A stretch of 64,000 nucleotides of DNA. Source: Patescibacteria group bacterium. GTDB taxonomy: Bacteria; Patescibacteriota; Minisyncoccia; Phycocordibacterales; Phycocordibacteraceae. The translations under genes were made by a program, and so were the position numbers. Positions 19,941-38,711 of this stretch are shown piece by piece (position 1 is the stretch's first letter; every line of letters starts with the position of its first letter). The notes beneath the pieces were generated by a model. It worked only from the letters and a program-made list of their open reading frames with translations. It ran no database searches and was not told the origin of the DNA. The stretch is from NCBI GenBank assembly GCA_038064695.1, contig JBBTSO010000005.1, positions 106,070 to 170,069 of the forward strand, given 5' to 3'.

Positions 19941-20390
19941 TTATGCTATTTTTTCTTTAAGTATTTTTTCTGCGGCAAGAATGGCAACTTTCACCATTTC
20001 TTTTTCGCTTTCAGCTAATGCCGCGCGCTTCAACTCCTCAGCTTGCGTACGCGCTTCGCTTAGTACTCCCTCTGCTCGCTCCTGCGCGGTTTTTAGAATA
20101 TCGGTGCGCTGATTTTTTGCCTCGTTGACCGCGCGTTCAACCACTGCGCCTGCTTCTTTTTGTGCAGAAGTTAAAATGCCTGTTTTTTCCTGTTCAATGA
20201 CCGCGCGCGCTTCTGATGCTTCACGGGCATCATCTAACCCTTTTTTGAGCACCGCCTCACGCTCCGCTAACACGTGCATTAACGGCTTGTACAAGAAAAA
20301 AGTAAGTCCACCGAACACGATAAGGAAGTTAACTCCTTGTGCGATGAGTAGTTTCCAGTCAACACCGAAAGCGGCAAAAAGCTCCCCCAT
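19941..20390 (-). CDS. atpF: F-type ATP synthase subunit b
   Basis: Single N-terminal TM helix, then a long charged Ala/Glu/Lys-rich helix. Confidence 0.85.
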   Translation of the reverse strand: MGELFAAFGVDWKLLIAQGVNFLIVFGGLTFFLYKPLMHVLAEREAVLKKGLDDAREASEARAVIEQEKTGILTSAQKEAGAVVERAVNEAKNQRTDILKTAQERAEGVLSEARTQAEELKRAALAESEKEMVKVAILAAEKILKEKIA

Positions 20391-20397
20391 GCACTTT

Positions 20398-20658
<261 letters not shown>

Positions 20659-21411: not shown

Positions 21412-21455
21412 ATGGATACTAGTGTATCATAAAAGCATTACAAACAAACAAAAAT

Positions 21456-21758
21456 ATGAAAAATTTTGTCGCGTTTATTCGTGAACAGGGAGTGATAGGC
21501 CTCGCCATTGGTTTTATTTTAGGAGGCGCTGTTTCTACCGTCGTTGCGTCGCTTGTTAAAGATATTATTAATCCCCTTTTGGGAATTTTGCTTGGCTCTG
21601 TGGGAGGGTTAGCAACCGCACATTTCTCAATTTTAGGAGCTCAAATTATGTGGGGTAGTTTCGTATCAGTGCTTATAAACTTTTTGGTGATTGCAGCAGT
21701 CGTCTACTACGGATTCAAAGGCCTTGGGTTAGACAAATTAGACGTAAAAAAACCGTAA
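21456..21758 (+). CDS. mscL: large-conductance mechanosensitive channel MscL
   Basis: VIGLAIGFILGGAVSTVVASLVKDIINPLLG is the MscL TM1 signature. 100 aa, two TM helices. Confidence 0.85.
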   Translation: MKNFVAFIREQGVIGLAIGFILGGAVSTVVASLVKDIINPLLGILLGSVGGLATAHFSILGAQIMWGSFVSVLINFLVIAAVVYYGFKGLGLDKLDVKKP

Positions 21759-21762
21759 AACA

Positions 21763-22395
21763 CTACGGAGTGAAGGCTTTTCGCAATTCCTCCATTTTCT
21801 GGGGGTTTGAAAGCGCTTCATAAACACGTAACCTAAAAGGCAATCCGCGGTAGTATTGCCCCTCAAAACCGGTTGTAGCAAAAGCAATAAGTTCATCAAA
21901 CGTTACCGTGCGCGGAGTTATCCGTTCGCCCGGATCAAGTGTTACCTCAGACACTTTTGTGCACCCTTTTCCGATGTACACGTAGACAACCGCGTCTGTT
22001 TTGGTTGCGGGAGCATCCGTATAAAACAACGTGAGCGTCTCTGCCTGGTATCCCGTTTCTTCTTTTAATTCTCTTCGAGCTGCCTCATCTGGTGTTTCTC
22101 CTGCCTCTACCCTTCCACAAGGAGCAGTAATAACCGTCTCTCGATTTGGCTGCGAATCTTCAATCAGTAGTATTCTCCCGTCGGGGAGTATGGGAAACAC
22201 GATCGCGGAGTCAGCGCGGTGCGCCATTTCAAAGGTGGCATATGACCCATCAAACAATTTCTGTTGCCACTGGTAAATATCAAAAATAATTCCCTCAAAA
22301 ACTTTCTTTGCGTCTTTCGGAATTCTACTTTCCCTGTACGGGGGCTGTGTTCCCATTGATATTAAAAATATACCATGGCAGGGCACACAGTCCAC
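21763..22395 (-). CDS. NUDIX hydrolase (ADP-ribose pyrophosphatase-like)
   Basis: Nudix box GRVEAGETPDEAARRELKEETG. The true start is probably the internal MGTQPPY. Confidence 0.8.
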   Translation of the reverse strand: MDCVPCHGIFLISMGTQPPYRESRIPKDAKKVFEGIIFDIYQWQQKLFDGSYATFEMAHRADSAIVFPILPDGRILLIEDSQPNRETVITAPCGRVEAGETPDEAARRELKEETGYQAETLTLFYTDAPATKTDAVVYVYIGKGCTKVSEVTLDPGERITPRTVTFDELIAFATTGFEGQYYRGLPFRLRVYEALSNPQKMEELRKAFTP

Positions 22396-22410
22396 TGGTG
22401 ACTAGTTGTT

Positions 22411-22956
22411 CTATTTGACTAACACTTCTACCGTTCTGTCAATAAGCGCGTCAGTAGGGAGCGACACAAAACCTAATGAACGAGCAAGGGAAATGCTCGC
22501 GTCATTTCCGCATGCGATCTGTACATAGAGTCGAACCCCTGTGTTTTGTGTTACGTAGTGAGCAAGTGCCATTTCACAAAATTTTTTCATAAAACCCGCG
22601 CCACGAAATATCCCATAGGAACGGTACGCTACCGTGTGCCACTCACTCCCCTCACCGAATTCACGATCAGTAGTGGGGAGTGCTTTTGGCCCACACCACA
22701 CGATGCCTGCCAACACGTCATCGGGAGTCACCGCCACGTACAGTGTTCTTCCTTGTGCATACCACTCTTCAAACGAACCCGTACCAAATCGTTTTCGGTC
22801 AGACGTTACCGCGAGCTCAGTGTCAGAAGTATCCAGTGAGTACTTTTTTAATTGCTGAAGATGGGTTTCAGAAAGTCCCTGCATTACGCGGAGCGGAACG
22901 CCACTTTTGGTGTTGACCGTTCCTATGTCGTGTAACTCAAAGAGCGGAGTGGTCAT
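22411..22956 (-). CDS. putative GNAT-family acetyltransferase
   Basis: RGAGF at the acetyl-CoA site position and an overall GNAT-like pattern. Weak. Confidence 0.4.
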   Translation of the reverse strand: MTTPLFELHDIGTVNTKSGVPLRVMQGLSETHLQQLKKYSLDTSDTELAVTSDRKRFGTGSFEEWYAQGRTLYVAVTPDDVLAGIVWCGPKALPTTDREFGEGSEWHTVAYRSYGIFRGAGFMKKFCEMALAHYVTQNTGVRLYVQIACGNDASISLARSLGFVSLPTDALIDRTVEVLVK

Positions 22957-24134
22957 AGAATACCGAACGTTTTACCCACTTCGGTAAATTTTTCTACCGC
23001 GAAAATAATATCTTCTTCAGTATGCGCGGCAGAAATTTGTACCCGAATGCGCGCGGTCCCTTTCGGCACCACCGGGTAACTAAATCCAATGACATAAATT
23101 CCCTTCTCGTATAACGCGCGCGCCATGTCGGTCGCTTTCTTTTCATCACCGACCATAATGGGAGTAATGGGGTGTGGTGCGACCGATACAGAAAATCCTG
23201 CTTCTTTCATCCGACTTCTAAACAGTGTGGTGTTACTCCACAAGGAACTACGAAGTTCGGGATGCGCTTGAATGTGCGCAAGTGCCGCAATGGAAGTACC
23301 CGTAATAACCGTATCCAAGCTGTTTGAAAAAAGGTACGAGCGAGATTTTTGCCGTAGATACTCAGCAACGCGCGCGTTGGTTGCGGTGAACGCACCTCCC
23401 GCGCCTCCGAGTGCTTTCCCAAACGTGCCGGTAATAAAATCAATTTTCCCTAAAACCCCTTCTGCCTCAGCAACACCACGACCGGTGTCTCCCATTACTC
23501 CCGTTGCGTGCGCGTCGTCAACAAACACGAGCGCGTCATATTTTTCCGCAAGCGCGACAATGGATTTTAATGGCGCAATATGTCCATCCATTGAAAAAAC
23601 GCCATCGGTTGCAATAACCCGGTACCGCTTATCTTTGGTACTGATGAGTTTTTGCTCCAAGTCGGCCATATCCATATGCGCGTACACCAATCGTTCGGAT
23701 TTTGTTAAACGAATAGCATCAATAATGGAAGCGTGGTTTAGTGCATCGCTAATAATGGCGTCTTCTTCGGTAAAAAAAGTCTGGAAAAGACCGACGTTTG
23801 CCATAAAACATGACGAGTAAAGAACGGCATCCTCGCACCCTACAAACTCAGCAATCTTTTTTTCAAGTGTTTTATGTATTTCCTGAGTACCGCAAATAAA
23901 CCGAACTGAGGCAAGTCCATACCCCCACCGCTCTAACACCTTCTCTGAGGCCTCCGCGAGCAGCGGAGACCCTGAAAGTCCAAGGTAGTTGTTTGCGCAA
24001 AAATTGAGCATTGTTTTATCGCCAACGGTGATTTCTCTTCCCTGGCGCGAGGAAAGTACTCGCTCTTCTTTGTACACACCTTCGTCACGAAATTTTTGTA
24101 ATTCTTGAGTGAGATTATCAATAAAACGTTTCAT
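22953..24134 (-). CDS. kbl: 2-amino-3-ketobutyrate CoA ligase (glycine C-acetyltransferase), PLP-dependent
   Basis: Class-II aminotransferase fold with PLP-lysine region GTFGKALG. Sits next to tdh. Confidence 0.8.
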   Translation of the reverse strand: MKRFIDNLTQELQKFRDEGVYKEERVLSSRQGREITVGDKTMLNFCANNYLGLSGSPLLAEASEKVLERWGYGLASVRFICGTQEIHKTLEKKIAEFVGCEDAVLYSSCFMANVGLFQTFFTEEDAIISDALNHASIIDAIRLTKSERLVYAHMDMADLEQKLISTKDKRYRVIATDGVFSMDGHIAPLKSIVALAEKYDALVFVDDAHATGVMGDTGRGVAEAEGVLGKIDFITGTFGKALGGAGGAFTATNARVAEYLRQKSRSYLFSNSLDTVITGTSIAALAHIQAHPELRSSLWSNTTLFRSRMKEAGFSVSVAPHPITPIMVGDEKKATDMARALYEKGIYVIGFSYPVVPKGTARIRVQISAAHTEEDIIFAVEKFTEVGKTFGIL

Positions 24135-24135
24135 A

Positions 24136-25335
24136 CTAGCCGTTAATAGAGAAAATAATTTTAGGGTGCGCGTTCATTGCGTTTTCAAAACTCTCTGGAG
24201 TAAACGACGAGAACGGGTAGAGTGTCCCTTCTCCTTTCTTTAGGATGGTATTCCAAATGGCATCTTGAACACCATTTGTTTTATCTGAAAGTACTCGTTG
24301 AGCAATTTGCCAGGTGCGAAAAATTTCGCGACCAATAATGTTGTGCATGGTGAGTCCTCGCACAATAACTCGGTTAAACTTCGGGATAGTAAGATCGCCG
24401 TCTTTGATACCAAAAAAGACCACGTGACCTCCGCGCCTCGTCGCGTCAATGGCGTTATTGACTGAAGAAAAGGGACCAGCCATTTCGAGAGAAACATCAA
24501 CGCCTTTCCCGTAGGTAATTTCCATAATGCGCGCTATTACTTCAGGATCACCTTCCCAGTCATGAGTTTTGGTCTTTTTTTCAATCTGAATTGTTTCGTG
24601 AGCCCCAAGTTCTCGCGCGATGCGTAAATTTTCAGGATTGACGTCTATGGCAATTACTTTTGCGGCACCGAAATTTCGCAAAAGTAAAATAGAAAAAAGA
24701 CCGATGGGGCCACACCCGAACACCGCGACACGTTGCCCTCGCACGTCGACGCGGGTAGTAGAGTGTACTGCGTTTCCAAACGGGTCAAAAATAGATGCTA
24801 TTTCTGGACGAATGCGCGTCTCATCAATGGCCCATAAATTTTTTGCAGGTATTTTTACGTATTCCGCGAAAACACCATCAATGGAGATCCCAAGAATTGA
24901 TTCATTCATACAAACATTAGCTTCACCTACGCGACACTGGAAACACGTGCCACACGTAATATGCGAGTCGCCCGATACGAGCGCACCCACCTGTATTTTT
25001 GCTTTGTTGTGCGGATCACTGTCCAAATACAGACGTTCAACCATTGACCCCTGTTCTACAATCTCCCCTACAAATTCGTGCCCGTTGATACGGAGTGTTT
25101 TCCCTTCACGTTGGAGTGAGTCGTGTACCAAATCTTTAAACGCGCTACGGTGCCAGAGCCCACGGTCGCTCCCACACACGCCTGCAAATCGAACTTTTAT
25201 AATGACTGCGAGTGCATCGTCTGGATTTTTTTTCTCATCGAGCGTGGGTCGCGGAACATCTCTCAAAACAAAACCTTTACTTCCCGACCAGCCGTCGGCA
25301 ACTGAGTCAAATGTGAGGGCTTTCACGGTATCCAT
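24136..25335 (-). CDS. tdh: L-threonine 3-dehydrogenase (Zn-dependent medium-chain dehydrogenase)
   Basis: GVCGSD...GHEFVGEIV zinc-ADH signature, GxGxxG Rossmann GCGPIGL. Operon with kbl. Confidence 0.8.
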   Translation of the reverse strand: MDTVKALTFDSVADGWSGSKGFVLRDVPRPTLDEKKNPDDALAVIIKVRFAGVCGSDRGLWHRSAFKDLVHDSLQREGKTLRINGHEFVGEIVEQGSMVERLYLDSDPHNKAKIQVGALVSGDSHITCGTCFQCRVGEANVCMNESILGISIDGVFAEYVKIPAKNLWAIDETRIRPEIASIFDPFGNAVHSTTRVDVRGQRVAVFGCGPIGLFSILLLRNFGAAKVIAIDVNPENLRIARELGAHETIQIEKKTKTHDWEGDPEVIARIMEITYGKGVDVSLEMAGPFSSVNNAIDATRRGGHVVFFGIKDGDLTIPKFNRVIVRGLTMHNIIGREIFRTWQIAQRVLSDKTNGVQDAIWNTILKKGEGTLYPFSSFTPESFENAMNAHPKIIFSING

Positions 25336-25381
25336 AAGATCTTAGTATATACCAACCAAAATACCATTCCGTCACACGGCT

Positions 25382-26056
25382 CTAAAACACGAGCAAATGA
25401 GCCGGTTTTTCAGAAAGGGTAATGAGTACCTTTTCTCCATCGTGGATGACTGCTTCGCCTTCAAAATTATCAACATACACGAGCGCGGGACCGCGGTGTA
25501 TTTCAACCGTAAGTGAAGTCTCTTGCTCTGGTAAAAACAACGGGGCCAGGTGTTCCGCGGTGTTGTTAAATGCAACCCCGATACCAGATTCAAAAGTCTT
25601 ACGGGTGATGCTTTGAAAATATCCCGTGGCACCAAGCGCAGTTGCCACCACTACCCCGTCTCCAATAATGTTAGAAAATGTCTGTGTATTGGTATGGAGT
25701 GAGAAACGAACTGCGTGGCGAGGATTTTTATTTCTTACCACCACGTCATTTAACGCGTACCAAACCACTCCGGCAGTTTCTACTTGTAGTTTTAAAATGG
25801 TCCGAACGGTGTATGCTTTTTCCGACAAACGCTTGAGCACGTGATCCAGCGGGAGCGTGGTGCACAACGTACACGTCGCGCTATTTTTTATGAGTAGCTT
25901 CGGAACAGTCGGAAACCGCGCTTCGGAGCGAAGAAAAGTGCCATCGCCCCCAAAACTAATAACGACGTCAGGGTTTTCATTAACAACGCGAAATCCTGCC
26001 CGTTCAACATCTGAACGTAACGTTTCTACTTGTTCACCAAAAAGGGCGATATTCAT
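25382..26056 (-). CDS. nadK: NAD+ kinase
   Basis: GGDGT, NDVVV and DGVVVATALGATGY motifs. Start set at MNIALFGE (ORF open to 26083). Confidence 0.85.
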   Translation of the reverse strand: MNIALFGEQVETLRSDVERAGFRVVNENPDVVISFGGDGTFLRSEARFPTVPKLLIKNSATCTLCTTLPLDHVLKRLSEKAYTVRTILKLQVETAGVVWYALNDVVVRNKNPRHAVRFSLHTNTQTFSNIIGDGVVVATALGATGYFQSITRKTFESGIGVAFNNTAEHLAPLFLPEQETSLTVEIHRGPALVYVDNFEGEAVIHDGEKVLITLSEKPAHLLVF

Positions 26057-26089
26057 ACAAACACTATACCGGAGCCAAAACAACGTGCC

Positions 26090-26434
26090 CTAGCTCGCCT
26101 TCTGAATGTCTTCAACGTCTTCACTTATTTCTTCCACGTTTTCGTGAATTTCTTCAATATCTTCCTGAATTTCATCAACATCTTTTTCAACCTCGCGGAG
26201 TGACATCGTGTTACGATTGACGGTCATTTGAATAAAAAGCGCAAGATAAATGGCCTCAAGCGAAACAACGGTAGTCAAAACCAAAAGAACCATATCCCAG
26301 GGAGCTACTCCAAGTACACCCACCATAAAGGCCCCTAAAAAAGCGAGCGTATGCACTGCAATTGAAGAGGGAGAACCCATCCAGTGGGTAATTTTTTCAT
26401 ACATCCCGTGGTGATGGTGGTGGTTACGATCCAT
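26090..26434 (-). CDS. small 2-TM membrane protein with native penta-His N-terminus and acidic C-terminal helix (DUF1003-like)
   Basis: MDRNHHHHHGMYEK..., two hydrophobic helices, then C-terminal EVEKDVDEIQEDIEEIHENVEEISEDVEDIQ. Confidence 0.5.
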   Translation of the reverse strand: MDRNHHHHHGMYEKITHWMGSPSSIAVHTLAFLGAFMVGVLGVAPWDMVLLVLTTVVSLEAIYLALFIQMTVNRNTMSLREVEKDVDEIQEDIEEIHENVEEISEDVEDIQKAS

Positions 26435-26540
26435 AAAAATATACCCAAAGTATACACGGTATTTTTAAATTCTATGGAATTGCGAATTTAAATAGGTACG
26501 ATATACTATTCGTACCTCAAAAAGGTACAATAATTTGCAT

Positions 26541-26613
26541 GGGCCCTTAGCTCATTTGGTAGAGCGCCTCATTTGCACTGAGGAGGCGGGGGGTTCGAAT
26601 CCTCTAGGGTCCA
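26541..26613 (+). tRNA. tRNA-Ala (anticodon UGC)
   Basis: Cloverleaf folded by hand: acceptor GGGCCCT/AGGGTCC (one G-U), D arm GCTC-ATTTGGTA-GAGC, anticodon stem CCTCA/TGAGG with loop TTTGCAC, T arm GGGGG-TTCGAAT-CCTCT, discriminator A. No encoded CCA. Confidence 0.9.
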
Positions 26614-26616
26614 CAA
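26599..26616 (+). repeat. 18-nt direct repeat copy 1 (= 3-prime end of tRNA-Ala, ATCCTCTAGGGTCCACAA)
   Basis: Identical 18-mer recurs at 26772-26789, 173 nt downstream. Confidence 0.8.
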
Positions 26617-26627
26617 CATAAAAATTG

Positions 26628-26652
26628 CCCAGCTCATGCTGGGTTATTTTTA
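26628..26652 (+). terminator. intrinsic terminator hairpin CCCAGC-tcat-GCTGGG + T-run after tRNA-Ala
   Basis: Read directly. Confidence 0.55.
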
Positions 26653-26705
26653 TGGCGGTTGAGTGTGGGAGGATTCGAAAACCGGAAGCGCGACGGCGCT
26701 GAGGT

Positions 26706-26744
26706 GGGGTCGCAAAAATTTTTAGCAAAAAATTATTAGTGACC
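26706..26744. repeat. GGGGTCGC-AT-rich-GTGACC unit, copy 1
   Basis: ggggtcgcaaaaatttttagcaaaaaattattagtgacc. Near-identical unit at 26887-26927 (181-nt period). Confidence 0.6.
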
Positions 26745-26771
26745 GATGCGTGCTGAGCGAAGCGATGACAC

Positions 26772-26789
26772 ATCCTCTAGGGTCCACAA
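26772..26789 (+). repeat. 18-nt direct repeat copy 2 (displaced duplicate of tRNA-Ala 3-prime end; att-like)
   Basis: ATCCTCTAGGGTCCACAA identical to 26599-26616. Followed by a second hairpin+T-run (ATCCCGC-ctg-GCGGGAT at 26801-26829). Confidence 0.8.
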
Positions 26790-26886
26790 AAGACAGAAAC
26801 ATCCCGCCTGCGCGGGATTTTCTGCTTTTGTGGAAGGCACAGGTATATTTTTCTTTGAACGAAGTGAGAGGGAAAAATACCGAGCC

Positions 26887-26927
26887 GGGGTCGCGGAAAA
26901 TTTCTGTCAAGAAATTTATTTGTGACC
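26887..26927. repeat. GGGGTCGC-AT-rich-GTGACC unit, copy 2
   Basis: ggggtcgcggaaaatttctgtcaagaaatttatttgtgacc. Preceded by ataccgagccgggg, which carries the CCGAGC core of the dispersed repeat family. Confidence 0.6.
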
Positions 26928-26941
26928 ACCTTTTGCTTGTT

Positions 26942-27100
26942 TTAAGCGTTATTTAACACGTGCTCAATAAACTCAGGCATTGAAACCCCTACTGCCGCGA
27001 GGGACTTCGGAAGAAGTGAATTTTCAGTGAGACCAGGGAGTGTATTCACTTCCAAAAAGTAAATACCTCGGGGGGATACAATAAAATCACTGCGCCCTCG
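26942..27100 (-). pseudogene. displaced, diverged duplicate of the ddl 3-prime end (last approx. 47 codons), preceded by an in-frame stop
   Basis: Own translation: ...RSDFIVSPRGIYFLEVNTLPGLTENSLLPKSLAAVGVSMPEFIEHVLNNA*. Intact ddl at 30281-30450 reads YSRSDFIVSPRGIYFLEVNTLPDLRDISLFSVALGSVGVNMSEFIEHILKLVYEK*. A 49-nt stretch (27043-27091) is identical to 30381-30429; the flanks are about 60 percent identical. Confidence 0.75.
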
Positions 27101-27149
27101 TTCAGGTACCAACGATTATACCTCAACCTTTTTTAGCGCAAGCAACTGC

Positions 27150-27155
27150 TATAAT
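27150..27155 (+). promoter_or_regulatory. TATAAT -10-like hexamer immediately upstream of the hydrolase gene
   Basis: gcaactgcTATAATacc read directly. No convincing -35. Confidence 0.25.
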
Positions 27156-27162
27156 ACCACCC

Positions 27163-27831
27163 GTGTCTACTATTATTGTTCTTCATGGATGGAAACATAG
27201 TCTTGCTTCGTGGGAAGAATTTCGAATGCAGTTTCCCGTTGATACCGTTATCACTTTTGATTTACCAGGATTTGGCGACGAACCACTACATCTAGGGTGG
27301 GGCGTACCAGAATATGCTGGATGGGTTAAAGAGAAAATTGCTCCGTATACGTCTAAAGGTCCAGTTATTCTCCTCGGACACTCTTTTGGAGGAAGAATCG
27401 CTGCATACATTGCTATCCAACAACCACCATGGCTCGAGCGCCTCATTCTTTATGGCGCACCTCTTATCTACCAACCAACAATATGGGTGCGCTTCCGGGC
27501 AGGGATTGCAAAAAAAATAAAAGCTTTTATACCTTTTAAAAAATACATTCTCAACGTGCTCTTTCCTGAAAGCCACAAACCCGAGTACTACAAAATATTT
27601 AAAAAAATTGCTACGTTTGATTTAAAAAATGAATTACAACACATCACCGTACCAACTTTATTTGTATGGGGTGACAATGACACCGAAGCTCCACTCCGTC
27701 TTGGTCGGATAGCGGCAAAACTCATTCCGCAGAGTTTAATGGTAATATTGCCAAAATCGGGTCACAATATACACATCGACTCACCGTATCTATTCTATGG
27801 CGTTGTTAAAAAATTTATTGAGGGTAACTAA
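27163..27831 (+). CDS. alpha/beta-fold hydrolase
   Basis: IIVLHGW oxyanion-strand start and nucleophile elbow GHSFGG. Likely GTG start; 222 aa. Substrate unknown. Confidence 0.75.
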   Translation: MSTIIVLHGWKHSLASWEEFRMQFPVDTVITFDLPGFGDEPLHLGWGVPEYAGWVKEKIAPYTSKGPVILLGHSFGGRIAAYIAIQQPPWLERLILYGAPLIYQPTIWVRFRAGIAKKIKAFIPFKKYILNVLFPESHKPEYYKIFKKIATFDLKNELQHITVPTLFVWGDNDTEAPLRLGRIAAKLIPQSLMVILPKSGHNIHIDSPYLFYGVVKKFIEGN

Positions 27832-29155
27832 TTTTATTTTTCCTTTCGTAGATTTTTGCTATATTCTTCAATTAGAAGAATATAGCACAAGGCGCTACTT
27901 AGTTGCGTTAAAAAAATTCCTTTTCAGACGAAATCTCCAACAACGCCAACGACTTGTCTTAACACAACGAATAAAATTAACCTTGTTTCTGAGCGTTGCT
28001 ATGTATCTTGGAATTCTGACTAGTATTTATATCTTTACATCTGGAACAACTGCTCTTGTGTCCTACTTAGGAACTACAATACTAATTCCCTTAATCGTTG
28101 CTTTAGCAGATACAGTTATTACACCTGGTACATACCTTTTAAAGAAACGGATTAGAGCGTCTGCGCAACGTAAGCTTAAAAACTATAAAAACATTGTCAC
28201 TATCGTAATCGCTGGCAGTCATGGCAAATCGACAACAAAGACGTTTTTGTACGAACTACTACGATACCACTACAACACCAAGATGGCTCTGAGAAATATT
28301 AATACGCCAATGGGTATTGCTGATTGGATAAACAAAGAATTGCATGGCGGGGTGGATATTTTGATAGCAGAAATTGATACGTATTGGGTAGGAGAAATTA
28401 CTGATTCATGTCATATGCTTCGGCCCCGTCATGCGATCGTAACATCACTAGGCGAACAACATCTTGTTCGATTTAAAAACCAAGAAGAATTGCATCAAGC
28501 GCTACTTGAGACATTCACCTGTACCACAATAGATGGTTTGAAATTGGCACCACGAGAACTGAAAAATAATCTAGAGAAAAAAGGTTTAAATGACATCATA
28601 TATGTGGATGATATTCCGTACTACGCAGGGAGAAAGATAGAAACTCCGCAACTTTCTGAGACACAAAAAAAAGATCTCTCTTTGGCGCTTCGTATGGCAG
28701 AGGAATTTAGTATTCCAGAACATATAGTGGTCGATATTTGCTCGAAACTTACACCGCCTGATCGCAGGCAGGTTCAAAGCAAAATGCACGGCTTTGAAGT
28801 TGTTGATGATTCATACAATATTAGTTTTGAAACCGCACAAAAAGGTATCACCAGAGCGGCTGAGCTTGCAAAAGAAAAAAACAAAAAACTACTGATAGTA
28901 ACTGCGGGTATTCCTGAGCTGGGAAAAGAGAACGCGCAAGCGAATACCAAACTGGGGCAACAGATGGCTATCACAGCAAATTACATCGCTATATTGAAAT
29001 CTGACTTTCACAAAGCAATAATCGAAGGTATACCAAAAAAGAGTAGCTATTCTCTATACCCTTCTATTGACGATTTCTGGCTCGCTACTGAGTCATTCCC
29101 CAAGGACGAGTGGTTAATTCTTGTACAACCAGAACTAACTGATTTATATTATTGA
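27797..29155 (+). CDS. membrane-anchored Mur-ligase-family protein, MurF-like (UDP-MurNAc-peptide ligase family)
   Basis: Two N-terminal TM helices, then Mur ligase P-loop VIAGSHGKSTTKTF, central-domain acidic/His residues, and the C-terminal VVDDSYNISFE (MurF-type IDDSYNANP). Confidence 0.7.
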   Translation: MALLKNLLRVTNFIFPFVDFCYILQLEEYSTRRYLVALKKFLFRRNLQQRQRLVLTQRIKLTLFLSVAMYLGILTSIYIFTSGTTALVSYLGTTILIPLIVALADTVITPGTYLLKKRIRASAQRKLKNYKNIVTIVIAGSHGKSTTKTFLYELLRYHYNTKMALRNINTPMGIADWINKELHGGVDILIAEIDTYWVGEITDSCHMLRPRHAIVTSLGEQHLVRFKNQEELHQALLETFTCTTIDGLKLAPRELKNNLEKKGLNDIIYVDDIPYYAGRKIETPQLSETQKKDLSLALRMAEEFSIPEHIVVDICSKLTPPDRRQVQSKMHGFEVVDDSYNISFETAQKGITRAAELAKEKNKKLLIVTAGIPELGKENAQANTKLGQQMAITANYIAILKSDFHKAIIEGIPKKSSYSLYPSIDDFWLATESFPKDEWLILVQPELTDLYY

Positions 29156-30291
29156 TCAATAAATTTTTCTACAATTGAAGAGTCATAGTCAAGCCTCTGT
29201 GCGTCAAATTCCACCTGTCGTTGTCGAGCATTTTCGATGAGTAAACTGAATTGTTGTGTATATGGTTCACCTGTAGCCTCCCAGAGATAGAAAGCGAGTG
29301 ACCCGGGGATGGAATTTACTTCGGTCAAATAAAGCACGCGGTCCTTAGTGTACATAAAGTCAATACGCACCATCTGACTCTGTCGAGTGGCTCGAAATAC
29401 CTTTTTGGCTGTTTCTTGAATTTCTGATCGCAAAGATTCAGAAATATCAGCAGGAAGCTCTCGATTGAGTGAAGCCATGCCTTGTTGTGCTGTTTTTTTG
29501 CCACCTTTTTCGTACTTTTCCGCAAAACTGAGAAATGCTTCTTTTGAAAGAGGGCGTTCAATCTCGCTTGTCTCAATAACTCCGTTATTTTCTCTCACTG
29601 AACAGTTGTATTCAACAAAGTCTGTAAGTAGGGTTTCAACCAGTATCTCATTATCTACATGCGAGGCTTTTAAAAGAGCTTTTTCAAGTTCAATTTTTGA
29701 GTGTGCGATATCTAGTCCAATTGACGACCCCAGATGAACTGGTTTAACGATGAGATCATCGCCTAGCGTACGACAACACTTTTCAACAATCTCCTGAGTG
29801 TTTTTACGAATTTCTACTGAGGTGAATGACAAACCTGGTACAGTTCTCACTCCTTCTTGAGAAGCTAAATTTTTAGTAATCTGTTTATTGAGTGCTATTA
29901 CGGAACCTTCGATTGAAGGAGATGAATGGGCAATGTTACATGTCTCAAGTAATCCTTGCACTTTTCCACCCTCGCCACCTCCTCCATGAAAAGCCAATAA
30001 TGCTGCATAAGGATAAATGCTTTTTGAAAAAAAACCATTAGTACGCACAAACCCTCCATGTTGGTTTTTTCCAAAAGAAACTGAGACACGTTTGTTTTTT
30101 AAAAATCCTTTTCGAGATTTTAACTTTGGCAAATAATAAAAATCGTTTTCTTTTGAAATATAAATAACGTGCGGAGTATAAACTTCTGTGTCTAAGGCTT
30201 CTAGAGCCTGCAATCCAGTCACGACAGACACCTCGTGTTCGGGTGAAGTTCCCCCAAACATAAGTAATATAGGTTTTCTTTCACTTTTCAT
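29149..30291 (-). CDS. ATP-grasp ligase of the D-Ala-D-Ala ligase family (second, divergent copy)
   Basis: Ddl-like N-terminus ILLMFGGTSPEHEVSVVTG and an ATP-grasp C-terminal half (YTKDRVLYLTEVNSIPG). 380 aa, highly diverged from the adjacent ddl. Confidence 0.7.
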   Translation of the reverse strand: MKSERKPILLMFGGTSPEHEVSVVTGLQALEALDTEVYTPHVIYISKENDFYYLPKLKSRKGFLKNKRVSVSFGKNQHGGFVRTNGFFSKSIYPYAALLAFHGGGGEGGKVQGLLETCNIAHSSPSIEGSVIALNKQITKNLASQEGVRTVPGLSFTSVEIRKNTQEIVEKCCRTLGDDLIVKPVHLGSSIGLDIAHSKIELEKALLKASHVDNEILVETLLTDFVEYNCSVRENNGVIETSEIERPLSKEAFLSFAEKYEKGGKKTAQQGMASLNRELPADISESLRSEIQETAKKVFRATRQSQMVRIDFMYTKDRVLYLTEVNSIPGSLAFYLWEATGEPYTQQFSLLIENARQRQVEFDAQRLDYDSSIVEKFIDQ

Positions 30292-31252
30292 ACACGAGTT
30301 TCAGAATGTGCTCAATAAATTCACTCATATTAACACCGACAGACCCTAATGCTACTGAAAATAGTGAAATGTCTCTTAGGTCGGGCAGAGTATTCACTTC
30401 CAAAAAGTAAATACCTCGGGGGGATACAATAAAATCACTACGCGAGTAATGTCTGAGCCCCAAAGCGCTATGCGATACCGCGGCGAGCGACTTTAACTCC
30501 GCACTTTCACGATCAGAAAACGACCCTGGACAACGCTCTATGGTGCGCGGGTTGTATTTTGTTTCGTAATCAAAAAACGTGCTTTGTGCTGGTAAGACAA
30601 TTTCAACGGGGGGCAAGCGGTAAACGGGCTCTCCACGAAGTCCCTCAACCACGCCCACCGTTGCTTCTTTTCCTGGAATGTATTCCTCTATCAAAATTTG
30701 AGGAGAAAACTGGAATGCGTTTTTTACTCCCGTTTGAAATTCAAAGAAGTTCTTTGCGAGTGTTACACCCACTGAAGAACCCGCACTCACCGGCTTAATA
30801 ACTGAGGGTTGCGGAAAATGCCGAAACGCATGTAGTATTTCACGATCAAGGGTGTCAGAAACTGAAAGCGTTATTCCGTAGGGAGTTTTTACCCCCATAC
30901 TCTCTAGCGTTTTTTTAGTAAGCACTTTATTCATCGCAACAGATGAAGCGTACGTGCGACTGCCGGTGTACGGAACACCTATGCGCTCTAGTACGCGCTG
31001 AACACCTCCGTCTTCCCCATACTCACCATGAAGCGCATTCCACACGACATCAACTCCCGTTAAACTTTTCTCAGGGGACGCAGGAACGCCACGAACAAAC
31101 CACTCACCCCCTTTATCAATAAAAATGTCTCGCGTTTTGTACTGCTCCGAAAATGAATGCGCTAACTGTTGCAGTACCGCGGCACCTGTTTTTAACGAAA
31201 CATCATGTTCCGCTCCCACTCCTCCGCGAATAACGGCGACAGTTTTTTGCAT
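30281..31252 (-). CDS. ddl: D-alanine--D-alanine ligase
   Basis: VAVIRGGVGAEHDVSLKTG, EEYIPGKE and SRSDFIVSPRGIYFLEVNTLPDL. 323 aa. Confidence 0.9.
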   Translation of the reverse strand: MQKTVAVIRGGVGAEHDVSLKTGAAVLQQLAHSFSEQYKTRDIFIDKGGEWFVRGVPASPEKSLTGVDVVWNALHGEYGEDGGVQRVLERIGVPYTGSRTYASSVAMNKVLTKKTLESMGVKTPYGITLSVSDTLDREILHAFRHFPQPSVIKPVSAGSSVGVTLAKNFFEFQTGVKNAFQFSPQILIEEYIPGKEATVGVVEGLRGEPVYRLPPVEIVLPAQSTFFDYETKYNPRTIERCPGSFSDRESAELKSLAAVSHSALGLRHYSRSDFIVSPRGIYFLEVNTLPDLRDISLFSVALGSVGVNMSEFIEHILKLVYEK

Positions 31253-31291: not shown

Positions 31292-33181
31292 TTAAATTTC
31301 AATAATTAAAGGAACCAACTTAACAGTCACTTGAACAAATTGTGGGTCGCCATTGAGGTCATCACAACTTAAGGTAAAAATAGTTTCCGTGGTGAGTGCT
31401 GACGAATTGCGTAAACCTGATGAGGTAAGTCCTGAAAAAGAATCGCCATTCGTTCCCGCGATGCTACACGAACCACTTTCAATGTCAGTTGCGCTCCAGG
31501 TCAATGTCGCTGCAGTTTGTGGTTGTACCAGTTCAGATGCAGTAAAAGAAAGCGCGGCTGTAGGGAGTGATTCTTCAACACCGTCCGAAGGGCCCGTGCA
31601 GGCATTAACATCCGCGAGGTCAATAAGGTCATTTCCGTTATCGTCTAGCCCGTTAGCACACTGGGGGTTTGGAGATTCCGTTGTATCGGCAAGTGACGCG
31701 CAGCCATAGTCATTGGGATAGTCTATGAGCACATCTTCACCTGCATCATTATTTATCCCGTCTGAACACTGAGGATTGGGCGACTCGGTCGTATCAGACC
31801 CATCGGCACAACCGGGATCTGCGAGGTCTGTGTACGCGTCACCGTCATTATTTACTCCGTCGGCACACTGCGGAGTTGGATTACCAATGGTGATTGTGTG
31901 TGAGGTCCAGCCAGACTGCGCGCCCGCACTGTCTTGAGTTCGTGCCTTCACTATATATGAGTTTTGCGTAGCCCATTGGTAAAGGGTGCTTAAAAGCGTG
32001 TTTGACGTCGTGTATCCGCTCGCCGGAAGATTCAAATCAACGATTCCATCATTATTCCAGTCAACTCTGTAGCGAACCGTGTTGTTGTCGGGGTCGGATG
32101 CACGAAACGAAAACGTATAGTTGGCGCTCGTCACTCCTGTTGAAGGAGCAGTGATCGTGGGGACGTTTGGAAGTTGATTATACGTTACCGTCGCCGTATC
32201 GGTAATTTGATTCGGTGCAGAACCACCATTACATTGGTAGAGATCTGAAATGAGGTTACAGTAGGTGTTCGGACCACCTCCTCCTGACCAACTATTTACG
32301 GCACAGGTCTGTGAGCCAACGCAGGCAGTACCAGAAGGATCGGCGTTATTGGTACACTGGTTATTGGTGTAATAGTTACTATAGCTTGGTGGTGGTGGGC
32401 CTGAGCTGCACCACAAGTCAGTGACGTCCGTTACTCCTGTGTCTACCCACACACCTGGCGTTGCTGAGTACACTTCACTATCACAGGTGATGCTGTATGT
32501 TTTTGTTGTGGTGGGAGTAATAGTTACAGAACCGCTCGTGTTTCCCCCTGTAGAAAAGTTAGTGCCATTACAGAGAGTTGCGCGGGCTGAAGTCCAAGAA
32601 ATTAAAACAGAGCTTCCCGCGGTCACCGTTGTAGGAGAGACGGTTAAGTCAACGCTCGGGTCCGGTGGTGGCGGTGGATCATTGACGGTCACCGTGTCAG
32701 AAGCAGTTGCGGTAGTACACGAACCCTGACATTGAAACTGTCGGTGTGTCCACGTTCCACCTCCGTTGGAGGTACTCGACTGACATGTCCCTCCGTTTGG
32801 AGAACAACTTCCAGCTGGAGAGTAACTAATGTTTGTACTACAATTATTTGATCCAGGAGCGTCTTCAATATACGAGTCTGTTTGAACAAGTGTGCACGCT
32901 GGCGTTTCATCGTAACAAGTAACGGCGTACGTTTTAACTCCACTTGAACTTGGATATACTGTGGTGCTTCCGCTCTTTGCGTTCCCTGTTGAGAATCCGC
33001 TCCCCACACACTTCCACGCATCAGTTGAACTCCACGTAATGGTTACTGCTCCTTGCGTATATTGAGTTGCGGGAGTCGCGGTAACGGTTGCTGTTGCACC
33101 AAAAGCAAGCGTCGGGAAAAACAGTATGCTAATCATAAGCAACCCGAAGAATGAAAAGGAATTTTTTAAGTACAGCACCAT
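31292..33181 (-). CDS. large secreted Thr/Ser/Cys/Gly-rich surface protein with three Cys-flanked Asp/Asn-rich putative Ca-binding repeats
   Basis: Signal peptide, then 629 aa of low-complexity Thr/Cys-rich sequence. Three approx. 36-aa repeats: PQCADGVNNDGDAYTDLADPGCADGSDTTES, PQCSDGINNDAGEDVLIDYPNDYGCASLADTTES, PQCANGLDDNGNDLIDLADVNACTGPSDGVEES. PPPPPDP linker. Confidence 0.7.
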   Translation of the reverse strand: MVLYLKNSFSFFGLLMISILFFPTLAFGATATVTATPATQYTQGAVTITWSSTDAWKCVGSGFSTGNAKSGSTTVYPSSSGVKTYAVTCYDETPACTLVQTDSYIEDAPGSNNCSTNISYSPAGSCSPNGGTCQSSTSNGGGTWTHRQFQCQGSCTTATASDTVTVNDPPPPPDPSVDLTVSPTTVTAGSSVLISWTSARATLCNGTNFSTGGNTSGSVTITPTTTKTYSITCDSEVYSATPGVWVDTGVTDVTDLWCSSGPPPPSYSNYYTNNQCTNNADPSGTACVGSQTCAVNSWSGGGGPNTYCNLISDLYQCNGGSAPNQITDTATVTYNQLPNVPTITAPSTGVTSANYTFSFRASDPDNNTVRYRVDWNNDGIVDLNLPASGYTTSNTLLSTLYQWATQNSYIVKARTQDSAGAQSGWTSHTITIGNPTPQCADGVNNDGDAYTDLADPGCADGSDTTESPNPQCSDGINNDAGEDVLIDYPNDYGCASLADTTESPNPQCANGLDDNGNDLIDLADVNACTGPSDGVEESLPTAALSFTASELVQPQTAATLTWSATDIESGSCSIAGTNGDSFSGLTSSGLRNSSALTTETIFTLSCDDLNGDPQFVQVTVKLVPLIIEI

Positions 33182-33182
33182 A

Positions 33183-34109
33183 TTATGGAATTATAGAATA
33201 CGGCACATACCCCGCTTCAAATGTGTGCAGAAACTCACTGGGGATGGCTGGCTCTATAAAGTCCGCAAACTGATATCTTTGGAGAATGAACTCGTTATTT
33301 TCTTGATTTCTAGTGATTCCATAGAAACTGGCCGCATCCAGCGCCGCGGCATCAACAGCTGCTGGAACCTCACCGAGAGCACTCAGTTCAAAGGGAAACT
33401 CACCTTTTACTGAATATAGACTAAATCGTTTGGTGACTGGATTAAAAAACGCAATGTGTCCCCCGCGTGGAGCAACTAACGCAGCTTGCCCAATATATCC
33501 AACGGGACGGTCAGGTAATAACACCATTTTGTCTTTTAAAAGATAGTCATACGCCACCACGCCGTCGGGAGAAGAATAAATTAAAATTTTTGGATTCTCA
33601 GAAACGAGATACGGCTTAAACCCAACACCAATAACTTCTTTCTCTTCGGTATCAATATTTTGCAATACGACATTCCAGTCAGAAATGTTTTCTGAATAGA
33701 GTGTACTTCCAAAAGGCACATTGAGTTCTGCGTAGGCAACATAGGTGCCGTCAGGAGAGAAAGAAATAGCATCTTTTATGGATGAAGCGTCACTGATAAC
33801 TTTATTTCCCTCCGCCGACTCTAAAAAAATAACATTACCAATCTGGTTAGGCCAACGTACGATTGAGACGGTCGTTTTTGTGTTTGGCAAGCGCGCTCGC
33901 GCCAGTACTGACCCGTCATTTATAAAAGGGAGCGGAGTAAGTTTTTCATCACCCACTTCATACGCATCCGCTTTTATATAATTTCCTATAAGAATCTGAG
34001 TTGGCTCACGTTTGTCGGTGAGCAAAATTTTAGAAAAGAAAAACCACCCAACCACAGAAAGTAACAGTAATGAAAGAATAACAAAAGCAAAATACCTTTT
34101 CTTTATCAC
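33183..34109 (-). CDS. membrane-anchored putative beta-propeller protein (TolB-like repeats)
   Basis: N-terminal TM, then repeated SFSPDGTYVAY and SSPDGVVAY motifs of the WD40-like/TolB beta-propeller type. Confidence 0.5.
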   Translation of the reverse strand: MIKKRYFAFVILSLLLLSVVGWFFFSKILLTDKREPTQILIGNYIKADAYEVGDEKLTPLPFINDGSVLARARLPNTKTTVSIVRWPNQIGNVIFLESAEGNKVISDASSIKDAISFSPDGTYVAYAELNVPFGSTLYSENISDWNVVLQNIDTEEKEVIGVGFKPYLVSENPKILIYSSPDGVVAYDYLLKDKMVLLPDRPVGYIGQAALVAPRGGHIAFFNPVTKRFSLYSVKGEFPFELSALGEVPAAVDAAALDAASFYGITRNQENNEFILQRYQFADFIEPAIPSEFLHTFEAGYVPYSIIP

Positions 34110-34142
34110 GTTAACATTATACCATTGGACAAGAATATCTCT

Positions 34143-35369
34143 CTACCTTTTCCGCAACGCTTTACGATGACGCCCAATTGAAAAGCGATGCGCTTCGCTG
34201 TTTGCCAAAAGAATTGCGGCTTCGTGGGGAAAAGTTATTTTTGGGTTTCCCAACACTTCCCGAGGCCGGTGTTTTTCATCTTTCACCACCGACACAATGT
34301 CGCCGCTGTAGCCTAAATCAAAAAGTGTTTTTTTAGCACGTGCTACGTGCGCCTTCCCGCCGTCAATTACAACCAGGTGAGGTAGAGGCCACTCGCGGTG
34401 TGAAAAACGTCTCGTCAAAACTTCATCAAGCGCTGCGTAGTCGTCCCCCGCTTTTCCATTTCGAATGGTAAATAGGCGATACTGACTTTTTTGTACCTCA
34501 CCATCCTCAACTACCACCATCACCCCTCTCGGCGAACTACCCCGAAGGTGCGCCACATCAAACGCCTCAATGCGGTATGCAGTACTTTCTGGTTTTTTTA
34601 GCTCCTCTTTAATGAGTGTTAAATCCTGAATGTGTCGAAGCGCAAACACTTTTCTTTTTAACACTTCAGCTTCTTCAAAGTGGTGTGTTGCAGCTTTCGC
34701 GTTCATTTCTCGTTCTAAGCGTTTAACCAAACCGGCTTTGTTGGCAGAGAAAATATCAATAATAGCCCTGATTGTTTTTTGATACTCACCCTTATTAAAC
34801 GTTTGCGGATAGAGTCCGATAGATTGATTAAAGCGGATTTTTTTTTCTTGTGCTGGAGTTAGCTTTCCAGCACCCACAGGAAATTCTGTATCAAAAAACG
34901 GGAAAATTTTTCGTATAATTTTTAACGCTTCGCGTAATGCTACAGCACTTGGAAATGGTCCAAACAACTCTTTTACTGTTTTTGCGGGAAATCGCTGAGC
35001 AAGTTCGCGTTCTCGAACTACTAAGACCCTGGGAAATGTCTCCTTAGTCACCACGATAAAATTCCAACTTTTATTATCCTTGTTACTCGTATTTCCTACG
35101 GGAGTATATTTTTTAATAAGTTTTGCTTCTAAAATAAGTGCCTCTAACACTGAGTCAGTTTGCTCAAATTCAAGGGTTGATGCGTCAGTAACAATTTTTT
35201 CAATCAGTGGGCTCCGTATTTCTGCAATGTTTGATGCAAAATAACTTTTTACACGATCCCGAAGCGATGTTGCTTTGCCCACGTACAGCACTTCTCGTTT
35301 TGACCCGCGGAAAAAGTACACTCCGGGAGCGTCAGGAAAATCTTTAAATGAAACGTCTTTTTTGTTCAT
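34143..35369 (-). CDS. uvrC: excinuclease ABC subunit C, short form lacking C-terminal (HhH)2 domain
   Basis: GIY-YIG PGVYFFRGSKREVLYVGKATSLRDRVKSYF, UvrB-interaction region, and RNase-H-like endonuclease domain (RIEAFDVAHLRG...VVVEDG). Ends at 408 aa. Confidence 0.85.
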   Translation of the reverse strand: MNKKDVSFKDFPDAPGVYFFRGSKREVLYVGKATSLRDRVKSYFASNIAEIRSPLIEKIVTDASTLEFEQTDSVLEALILEAKLIKKYTPVGNTSNKDNKSWNFIVVTKETFPRVLVVRERELAQRFPAKTVKELFGPFPSAVALREALKIIRKIFPFFDTEFPVGAGKLTPAQEKKIRFNQSIGLYPQTFNKGEYQKTIRAIIDIFSANKAGLVKRLEREMNAKAATHHFEEAEVLKRKVFALRHIQDLTLIKEELKKPESTAYRIEAFDVAHLRGSSPRGVMVVVEDGEVQKSQYRLFTIRNGKAGDDYAALDEVLTRRFSHREWPLPHLVVIDGGKAHVARAKKTLFDLGYSGDIVSVVKDEKHRPREVLGNPKITFPHEAAILLANSEAHRFSIGRHRKALRKR

Positions 35370-35408
35370 TTTGACTAACTATACCAAACAGGGTACCGTG
35401 CGGGCAGT

Positions 35409-35747
35409 ATGGCTGAATCACTAGATGCAAAGCCGACACTAACGATTGAAAGGGTTGCTTTACTCATAGCATTTGCGAGTCTTATATATTATTACTTCAC
35501 ACCCGACATTGACTACTCAAGTGCCACGCTTGAACTGACTCCTGAACAGGAGGCTGACCGCGTCGTTACTTTTTATGAAGGACTTGGATATGACGAAGTA
35601 TACAAAGACTATGAAAACGGTGTGTGTATTGAAACTGGCGGACCACACGTACGTGCTTTTGAAACGGTCTGGAGAGGATCGATGACAGGAGGAGGAATGA
35701 TACGAGATGTAATGCGACGGTGTCTCGCGTGTGGAGAACTACTGTAA
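35409..35747 (+). CDS. small membrane protein with C-terminal CLAC motif, hypothetical
   Basis: 112 aa with TM helix VALLIAFASLIYYYF. Confidence 0.4.
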   Translation: MAESLDAKPTLTIERVALLIAFASLIYYYFTPDIDYSSATLELTPEQEADRVVTFYEGLGYDEVYKDYENGVCIETGGPHVRAFETVWRGSMTGGGMIRDVMRRCLACGELL

Positions 35748-35761
35748 CGATAGGAATAAGT

Positions 35762-38437: not shown

Positions 38438-38486
38438 ACCCGCTTCGGACGATGTATGTACCTATCGTACCATAAAGACGTTTAAG

Positions 38487-38678: not shown

Positions 38679-38711
38679 GAAACCTATTTTATACTAGTTT
38701 TTTAAATATGT

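Follow-up and report, generated by a model that had tools for sequence, protein, structure and literature searches.

How does a housekeeping gene of cell-wall synthesis come to possess two 3' ends? The question is raised by ddl of an uncultured groundwater Patescibacterium, which we analysed in a window of 64,000 nucleotides (nt; contig JBBTSO010000005.1, positions 106,070 to 170,069 of the forward strand). Database comparison placed this DNA in a Patescibacteria metagenome-assembled genome from Hainich groundwater well H41 (GCA_964357335.1, contig CAYHKB010000001.1). The gene is intact, and a diverged copy of its 3' end lies 3.3 kilobases (kb) downstream. Between the two copies lie genes for an alpha/beta-fold hydrolase, a membrane-anchored MurF-like ligase and a second, divergent Ddl-family ligase (ddl2), a content that a preliminary description of this DNA had already given and that gene calls and Pfam matches bear out. 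The best explanation, to which we assign a probability of roughly 0.7, is a C-terminal displacement of the housekeeping ddl by homology-guided insertion of foreign DNA. The distant copy would then be the former end of the gene, and the end that the intact gene now carries would have arrived with the insert.

Two 3' ends of one ddl gene

A repeat search of the window returned a direct repeat, 26930-27095 versus 30278-30443, with 72% identity and a spacing of 3348 nt. Within it lies an exact core of 50 nt (27042-27091 = 30390-30439) that is identical at 50 of 50 positions; the preliminary description had put its length at 49 nt and had garbled one of its coordinates ("30381-29"). The core is present twice in the 64-kb window and nowhere else in it, with 0 occurrences in 100 shuffles. 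On the 3' side of the core the two ddl ends differ: 58 of 100 nt are identical, close to the 60% first estimated, and 16 of 33 codons specify the same amino acid, both copies being in frame with diverged C-terminal peptides, as had been noted. On the 5' side only 6 of 21 nt agree, which amounts to no homology. At 58% identity, the chance of 50 matches in a row is about 1e-12. Protein conservation was considered as the cause of the identity and rejected: over the 51 nt equivalent to the core, the window's ddl is 61-77% identical to the ddl genes of relatives, synonymous sites vary among them, and the perfect agreement of the two copies is thus not due to conservation of the protein.

The intact ddl (30281..31252, minus strand, 323 amino acids) has both Ddl Pfam domains above threshold and scores 236.4 bits on NCBIfam NF002378 (cut-off 243). 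Three parts can be told apart in it. Codons 1-271 (30440..31252, GC 48.2%) appear native by tree and nucleotide identity; the copy of the core that follows (30390..30439, encoding SDFIVSPRGIYFLEVNT) is likewise of native type; and the remaining tail (30281..30389, LPDLRDISLFSVALGSVGVNMSEFIEHILKLVYEK and the stop codon), whose last codons overlap the start of ddl2, seems to be an imported replacement. To compare the two ends we used the columns with at least 85% conservation in an alignment of 120 Ddl homologues, 24 of which lie from residue 272 on. The tail of the intact gene mismatches six of these 24 columns (G291D, T293R, P299S, K300V, A304S and A320V) and therewith lacks the near-invariant G291 and P299. 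The GC content drops from 48% in the rest of ddl to 38.5% in 30281-30389 and is 38.9% in the slice just past the core.

The same boundary is seen when the gene is compared with those of relatives, whose loci were obtained by exact protein look-ups. In a neighbour-joining (NJ) tree of Ddl residues 1-272, the window groups with P0002, P0003 and P0005 in 198 of 200 bootstraps and with P0007, the Ddl of locus L070, in none; P0002, P0003 and P0005 have canonical tails and come from loci without the insert. At the nucleotide level, ddl upstream of the core is 64.8% identical to L011, 63.2% to L009 and 58.7% to L070, and within the core the values are 76.5% for L009, 74.5% for L011 and 62.7% for L070. 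In the imported tail L070 is closest with 63.8%, L011 reaching 49.5%. The closest relative therefore changes exactly at the end of the core, from L011 and L009 before it to L070 after it. Together with the six mismatches and the low GC content, this closeness to L070 identifies the tail now on the intact ddl as foreign, as far as sequence comparison can tell.

The distant copy has the opposite character. It forms an open reading frame of 56 codons (26942..27112, minus strand) that matches Pfam Dala_Dala_lig_C with E=2.5e-10 and is headed by the second copy of the core (27042..27091). Its tail (26942..27041, GLTENSLLPKSLAAVGVSMPEFIEHVLNNA and the stop codon, GC 46%) keeps all 24 conserved Ddl columns (0 of 24 mismatched). 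The tail protein is 84% identical to the tails of both L009 and L011, and its nucleotide sequence is closest to L011 (72.9%), followed by L009 (69.8%) and L070 (58%). After the stop codon follows GGTCAC...GCGACCCCGGCTCGG, part of a downstream flank (26790..26941, minus strand) that is homologous to the spacer between ddl and the alanine transfer RNA (tRNA-Ala) gene in L010 and L011. On account of its canonical residues, its closeness to L011 and L009 and this homologous flank, the fragment together with the flank reads as the native 3' end of ddl. The expectation in the preliminary description that incoming DNA with a ddl 3' end of its own had recombined at the core is supported by the native fragment, the foreign tail and the switch of closest relative between them.

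The displaced native tail is, judging from its surroundings, silent. The in-frame stop codon that had been reported immediately upstream of it is present, a TAA that sits inside a TATAAT box. The sole possible start is a TTG three bases after this box, and it has no ribosome-binding site. The box belongs to an apparently donor-derived tRNA-Ala promoter (GGTATAAT, 27115-27122, minus strand) that is now directed into the displaced fragment.

Downstream of the fragment, the native flank contains a bidirectional terminator hairpin (26801-26818, terminator scan), and beyond it lies the conserved ddl neighbour tRNA-Ala(tgc) (26541..26614, plus strand; ARAGORN, Rfam) on the strand opposite to ddl. 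The window shares this orientation with L010 and L011; in L009, L070 and L068 the tRNA gene is on the ddl strand. The last 18 nt of tRNA-Ala (26599-26616) recur exactly 173 nt downstream at 26772-26789, and the space between the ddl fragment and the tRNA gene consists of two tandem units of about 170 nt (approximately 26617-26789 and 26790-26941). In each unit GGTCAC is followed by an AT-rich segment, GCGACCCC..CTCGG, a hairpin with its T-tract and, lastly, the repeated tRNA 3' end. L010 (10057-10255) and L011 (9446-9636) have one homologous unit each, which also borders on a copied tRNA-Ala 3' end. Rfam, searched with gathering thresholds over the whole window and with E-value thresholds over 26400-27200, returned tRNA-Ala only and no RNA family for the spacer units, which could be a relic of an attachment (att) site duplication or a conserved tRNA-linked small RNA.

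A conserved three-gene module at a patchily occupied site

The genes between the two ddl ends run towards each other. The hydrolase gene (27163..27831, plus strand) overlaps the start of the MurF-like gene (27797..29155, plus strand, 452 amino acids), and ddl2 (29149..30291, minus strand, 380 amino acids) overlaps ddl by 11 nt. The 3' ends of the MurF-like gene and ddl2 overlap by 7 nt (29149-29155), and no terminator-like site was detected between these two genes. Among the 43 genes of the window, the three module genes have the lowest GC content (0.38-0.41; mean of all genes 0.463, standard deviation 0.029) and the lowest GC content at third codon positions (GC3, 0.29-0.35; mean 0.441, standard deviation 0.054), ddl2 with a GC3 of 0.29 being lowest of all. 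Of the shift in GC and codon usage that had been proposed as a check, the GC part is present, also at third codon positions.

Comparison of the loci indicates that the site is occupied in some relatives and empty in others. They share a backbone of uvrA/B/C, surface proteins, ddl, a variable region and then NUDIX, MscL and ATP synthase genes. Cassette-free ddl loci, which the preliminary description had suggested looking for, were found in five cases (L009, L010, L011, L071 and L072), where a canonical ddl is directly followed by the tRNA-Ala region or by other genes. Besides the window, L007/L070 and L068 are occupied. In these, ddl and ddl2 lie on one strand and the MurF-like and hydrolase genes on the other, followed by a GGGTATAAT promoter and tRNA-Ala. 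On the hydrolase side of L007/L070 and L068, tblastn found no long ddl fragment, and no core repeat is present there either. When metagenome contigs were scanned with an alignment of Ddl2 from the three ddl-linked lineages, nothing above 45% identity and no further occupied sites came up.

An NJ tree of UvrC separates the window, L010, L009 and L011 from L070, L068, L071 and L072 in 500 of 500 bootstraps and places the occupied L068 with the empty L071 in 497 of 500. On this backbone, site occupancy appears patchy, and an identical arrangement in all relatives, which would have spoken against an insertion, is not what we see. The module proteins moreover give relationships of their own. In the Ddl2 tree the window is sister to L070 in 200 of 200 bootstraps, and Ddl2 is 65.4% identical between the window and L070, compared with 55.3% between L070 and L068. 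The MurF-like proteins follow suit (52.1% versus 44.4%), whereas UvrC has the reverse order (67.6% between the window and L070, 73.7% between L070 and L068). The relationships of Ddl2 and the MurF-like protein, as read from these comparisons, conflict with the UvrC/Ddl backbone. Of the comparisons gene by gene that had been called for, the Ddl2 tree and the identities of the MurF-like protein give a conflict, the hydrolase showing a different pattern.

The stretch from ddl to the NUDIX/MscL/ATP-synthase block (window 20000-26500 and 31300-41000; L009-L011, L068, L070-L072) resembles a plasticity zone, with a different set of genes in each relative: MFS; LtrA-PAP2; GATase; methyltransferase-NADK-PTA-XFP; or DUF1003-NADK-ADH-aminotransferase. 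Even L009 and L011, close relatives from the same sample, have tRNA-Ala in different orientations. An apparent strain difference between L002 and the window in a 629-residue protein was rejected as a scaffold gap of Ns.

Where ddl and ddl2 form an operon, Ddl is altered in a characteristic way. The ddl genes of the window, P0007 and P0051 depart from the consensus almost only after the core: scored over 12 conserved tail columns and 104 columns before the tail, the window Ddl mismatches 6 and 3, P0007 5 and 5, and P0051 2 and 3, respectively. All three have lost G291 and P299. The ending ..YEK of the window Ddl is common to P0007, P0051 and P0065, because the start codon of ddl2 lies inside those codons. 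Ddl proteins whose gene overlaps ddl2 all end in ..AYEK; three of the four have lost G291 and P299 of the substrate loop, the remainder of the protein being conserved. The operon lineages are scattered in the Ddl tree, which, with their aberrant tails, fits a joint transfer of tail and ddl2. The pattern also suggests that the Ddl tail with its active-site loop may be relaxed or remodelled where ddl2 adjoins.

The module itself is widespread. When species-representative genomes were scanned with an alignment of the MurF-like protein, 56 loci were returned from Saccharibacteria, Dojkabacteria, Woesebacteria, Roizmanbacteria, Uhrbacteria, Buchananbacteria, Minisyncoccia and others. The order hydrolase, MurF-like gene and, on the opposite strand, ddl2 is the same in 48 of the 56 Patescibacteria loci, mostly away from the canonical ddl. 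Given this constancy, the module is a conserved chromosomal unit and not a rare mobile cassette. Of the earlier proposal of a horizontally acquired cell-wall-precursor cassette, the transfer is retained on the evidence of the empty sites and the tree conflict, while the term cassette gives way to that of a module ordered alike in most loci. Neither PHROGs nor tblastn searches of phage and plasmid collections linked the module to such elements in a meaningful way. Two unannotated human faecal contigs named 'Bacteriophage sp.', MT835503.1 (28747-29895) and MT835658.1 (4896-5972), encode proteins distantly related to the MurF-like protein (24-27% identity, with about 75% of its length covered).

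The junctions and the proposed route of insertion

The left junction falls within ddl, where the core ends, and is in register. The right junction, next to the hydrolase gene, is of another kind. Adjoining the hydrolase start is a vestigial ddl end of about 12 codons (27123..27161, minus strand, GGIIAVACAKKG and the stop codon), recognised by its match to the ddl stop region of L009. The vestige and the following GGTATAAT closely match the ddl stop and the tRNA-Ala promoter of this empty-site locus, including a 13-nt exact stretch, TTGCGCTAAAAAA. Comparable ddl vestiges of about 10 codons are found at the same place in L070 and L068, identified by eye and by translation. The occurrence of vestiges in all three loci implies at least one earlier insertion of the module into a ddl end. 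The ATTATA codons of the vestige serve at the same time as the -10 box of the hydrolase promoter, which is read from the opposite strand.

Beyond the vestige, 27092..27122 (minus strand) aligns with the L070 spacer and would represent a donor-derived tRNA-Ala promoter, with the -10 box mentioned above, and the start of its leader. The sequence GGTATAATCGTTGGTACCT..GA.GG.GCA aligns with the spacer between hydrolase and tRNA-Ala in L070; past TATAAT the window tracks the tRNA leader of L070 (CGTTGGTACCT..GA.GG.GCA) and at GCGCA passes into the ddl core. At this junction point the sequence of the intact ddl is GCGTA, giving a microhomology of 3-5 nt with GCGCA. From the vestige and the tRNA-Ala promoter at its right end it follows that the insert includes part of a donor chromosome on which the module was flanked by ddl and tRNA-Ala. 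We therefore rejected the hydrolase-side junction as an att site: it appears to be a microhomology join with a donor tRNA-Ala promoter and a ddl vestige.

These observations can be combined into a sequence of events. The starting point was an ancestor resembling L010 and L011, as their comparison with the window shows, with uvrABC, two surface proteins, a canonical ddl, a short spacer, an opposite-strand tRNA-Ala and DUF1003. By the same kind of comparison, the donor was a related Patescibacterium in which ddl, ddl2, the MurF-like gene, the hydrolase gene, a ddl vestige, the promoter and tRNA-Ala were contiguous, as they are in L070 and L068. The left join formed by homology inside ddl, as is seen from the native-type sequence through the 50-nt core and the donor-type sequence after it. 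On the right, the donor tRNA leader was probably joined illegitimately at GCGCA/GCGTA, 50 nt upstream of the left crossover. A right join without homology would be needed because the recipient's tRNA-Ala is inverted: with the tRNA gene on the opposite strand, the clean double crossover that the fragment-free L070 and L068 imply was not available. As the outcome, 50 nt would have been duplicated, the last 33 native codons, headed by the core, would have moved 3.3 kb downstream into silence, and the working ddl would have been left with an imported, aberrant tail reaching into the start of ddl2. One-sided homologous recombination combined with an illegitimate join or a template switch is one conceivable route; a single crossover with a circular intermediate that carried an identical core is another. 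Pfam gave no recombinase in the 3.3-kb insert, and none is encoded by the genes called in the 10 kb to each side, in agreement with the earlier remark that an integrase is missing.

Several points weigh against this explanation. The exact identity of the 50 nt demands an extra assumption in every route, namely that both core copies derive from the recipient, that heteroduplex repair took place or that a circle contained an identical core. At the right junction the microhomology covers no more than 3-5 nt and was recognised by eye in a single alignment. The GC deficit of the module is suggestive and not decisive: relative to its flanks it is -6.4% in the window, compared with a mean of -1.6% (standard deviation 2.6%) in 47 other loci, two of which have a deficit as large. 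With the module on average 1.6% richer in AT than its flanks in those 47 loci, GC content alone was not taken to prove a foreign origin. The hydrolase is closer to L068 (58.9%) than to L070 (49.8%), and with this differing pattern the module may be a mosaic. The trees are NJ trees of single proteins, and emptiness concerns the ddl site, not the rest of the window genome or the genomes of the empty-site relatives. As the closest module, that of L070, is only 50-65% identical, the donor and the direction and timing of the transfer have to be inferred. The assignment of a function to the module comes solely from domain homology. As a correction to the preliminary description, and not as an objection, it may be added that ddl-ddl2 operons with an aberrant Ddl tail also exist in other lineages, where they are without a long fragment.

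Among the alternatives, the circular route deserves to be considered as an explanation in its own right: a circular intermediate carrying the ddl core and a replacement tail would have integrated by a single RecA-type crossover at the identical core (Campbell-type), with re-excision as a possibility that would give back the canonical ddl. It directly accounts for the start of the fragment at the core and for the exact core duplication, and the rhs literature describes 'tips distinct, core regions always identical' (PMC2935791). Moreover, several separate Ddl lineages have a module linked to ddl, in each case with the ..AYEK junction. However, the circle would have needed a 50-nt core identical to that of the recipient, yet the cores of relatives are only 61-77% identical, and the point at which it closed would be an arbitrary spot in a tRNA leader. 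On the hydrolase side, L070 and L068 have just the vestige of some 10 codons and no core repeat. An excised allele is not on record either, as the window Ddl is the only member of its 90% cluster. We regard this version as rather unlikely.

An ancestral ddl-ddl2-module arrangement that evolved in place is harder to maintain. The fragment would then be a later import together with the tRNA-Ala/DUF1003 flank, or a local duplication, and gene conversion would have equalised the 50 nt. It is true that L070 and L068 have the arrangement, also with a degenerate Ddl tail, and that the tRNA-Ala side of the window is like that of L010 and L011 rather than that of L070. But the nearest relatives have empty sites and canonical tails, so that even here the module must have been inserted after the split, and the relationships of ddl2 and the MurF-like gene conflict with the backbone. 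In addition, the conversion tract would have to reach exactly to the edge of homology, and the location of two junctions only 50 nt apart would be a coincidence. A local duplication cannot yield tails of 58% identity beside a core of 100% with the silent copy keeping 24 of 24 conserved columns; a local tandem duplication, the alternative raised at the outset, was rejected, as the silent copy is canonical and the two tails have different closest relatives. Overall, we judge an origin in place to be improbable.

Still less probable is a site-specific integrative element with the 50-nt core as its att site and an integrase that was lost or acted in trans. Identical direct repeats do bracket the insert, which rebuilds the 3' end of its target gene and has a GC content below that of its surroundings. 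These features stand against the absence of any integrase, recombinase or transposase from the 3.3 kb and from the 10 kb to each side of it, a cargo that is a conserved chromosomal module located away from ddl in most Patescibacteria, a right end consisting of a donor chromosomal promoter and a ddl vestige instead of an element arm, the absence of a repeated core at the other occupied sites (L007/L070 and L068) and the lack of phage or plasmid association. That the repeat is a chimeric join made during assembly of this metagenome-assembled genome is practically negligible as a possibility, since two further metagenome contigs cover both repeats at 100% identity, which makes three independently assembled contigs that span them, and a Logan unitig from a different run spans exactly 27062-30419, its ends being those expected of a true 50-nt exact repeat in a de Bruijn graph if k=31 (an assumed value).

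The module, the event and known systems

We found no description of the three-gene module in a literature search. Its MurF-like protein scores 92.6 bits on TIGR01143 murF (cut-off 288.6), and in Pfam it matches Mur_ligase_M alone. The AlphaFold2 model has a predicted local distance difference test score (pLDDT) of 90.5, and its best Foldseek matches in the PDB are the MurF structures 4qf5, 4qdi and 3zl8 (E about 1e-17 to 1e-15, about 364 aligned columns). Across the family, GSxGKTT, DDSYNIS and GIPELG are conserved motifs, of which GSxGKTT, DDSYN and ELG are invariant or nearly so. As in MurF, the model thus predicts MurF-type central and C-terminal domains with an ATP-binding P-loop, DDSYN and ELG. 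Unlike in MurF, the first approximately 128 residues are helical and take the place of the N-terminal uridine diphosphate (UDP)-binding domain, so that the protein falls short of the full three-domain architecture; two hydrophobic segments in this region, centred near residues 68-73 and 92-104, are predicted to form helices.

Ddl2 can be placed in the Ddl superfamily as a long-form ATP-grasp ligase. Like Ddl, it has both Ddl Pfam domains (Dala_Dala_lig_N and Dala_Dala_lig_C); it differs by a score of 208.4 bits on TIGR01205, below the cut-off of 245.65, and by the loop for the second D-Ala (PGxTxxSLxP), in which its family has a deletion of four residues, together with an insertion of 12 residues after KY. 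The hydrolase matches Pfam Abhydrolase_1 and Abhydrolase_6 and has only sub-threshold matches in NCBIfam, to MenH, BioH and EstV. All module proteins hence lie below NCBIfam cut-offs, in contrast to members of the MurF and Ddl families. The clustering of a Ddl paralogue with a hydrolase recalls van operons of the VanA type, in which the hydrolase is a VanX/VanY metallopeptidase and not, as here, of the alpha/beta fold.

From these domains we infer a pair of ligases acting on a membrane-associated envelope precursor, accompanied by a hydrolase. With low confidence, Ddl2 might make a D-aminoacyl dipeptide-like unit that the MurF-like enzyme joins to the precursor, and the hydrolase might trim or edit the product. 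A wider proposal, which we consider speculative and on balance doubtful, is that the module constitutes an undescribed, Patescibacteria-wide envelope pathway in which a Mur-type ligase without the UDP domain would act on a lipid-linked precursor and receive a dipeptide-like unit from Ddl2. The pathway would be exchanged with the ddl 3' end and the tRNA-Ala promoter serving as homology arms, each capture would remodel the Ddl active-site loop, and the 50-nt repeats would permit precise loss with restoration of a canonical Ddl. A conserved, uncharacterised three-gene module that adjoins and apparently co-evolves with ddl is in any case a reasonable target for envelope biochemistry.

The event that we propose has precedents. 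The rhs tips show the same anatomy and have been explained by the same models, including a Campbell-type circle (Jackson et al. 2009, PMC2935791). As in the rhs, contact-dependent inhibition (CDI) and MafB systems (PMC2935791), a constant 5' part carries a newly gained 3' tip with cargo behind it, the old tip lies silent downstream, headed by a core identical to that of the intact gene, the new tip differs in GC content (here 38.5-38.9% versus 48%), and the older vestige at 27123-27161 recalls the strings of orphan tips found there. The differences are that the target is a housekeeping peptidoglycan enzyme instead of a secreted toxin, that the new ddl tail is homologous and degenerate and not a non-homologous toxin domain, that the cargo is a conserved biosynthetic module and not an immunity gene, and that ddl gives no sign of repeated diversifying exchange. 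Homology-facilitated illegitimate recombination has been invoked for modules of the Vibrio cholerae type VI secretion system (Kirchberger et al. 2017, PMC5361080); a literature search on illegitimate recombination with duplication returned nothing relevant. There too, one of the two junctions is anchored in conserved homologous sequence and the other site lacks homology, foreign genes are gained and a resident part is shunted downstream without an integrase. In V. cholerae, however, resident DNA is deleted, whereas here 50 nt of the anchor are duplicated, and in our case the mechanism is read from a single scar in an uncultured Patescibacterium.

Genomic islands that target the 3' ends of genes share with the ddl insert the terminal direct repeats, element-borne sequence that keeps the target gene intact and a distinct composition. 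The ddl insert differs from them in having no integrase, a right end of donor chromosomal origin (promoter and ddl vestige), a conserved chromosomal cargo and a repeat that is absent at the other occupied sites. Homology-guided insertion that displaces the 3' end of a gene is accordingly a known kind of event, and the mechanism is not new; it is met here at a housekeeping gene of an uncultured lineage. What the locus offers is a clear, datable scar of homologous and illegitimate recombination in a reduced genome, which suggests that in these Patescibacteria the 3' end of even a core cell-wall gene can be exchanged when genes are transferred. Set beside these systems the scar itself is mechanistically ordinary, and the module that came with it is the part most worth following up.

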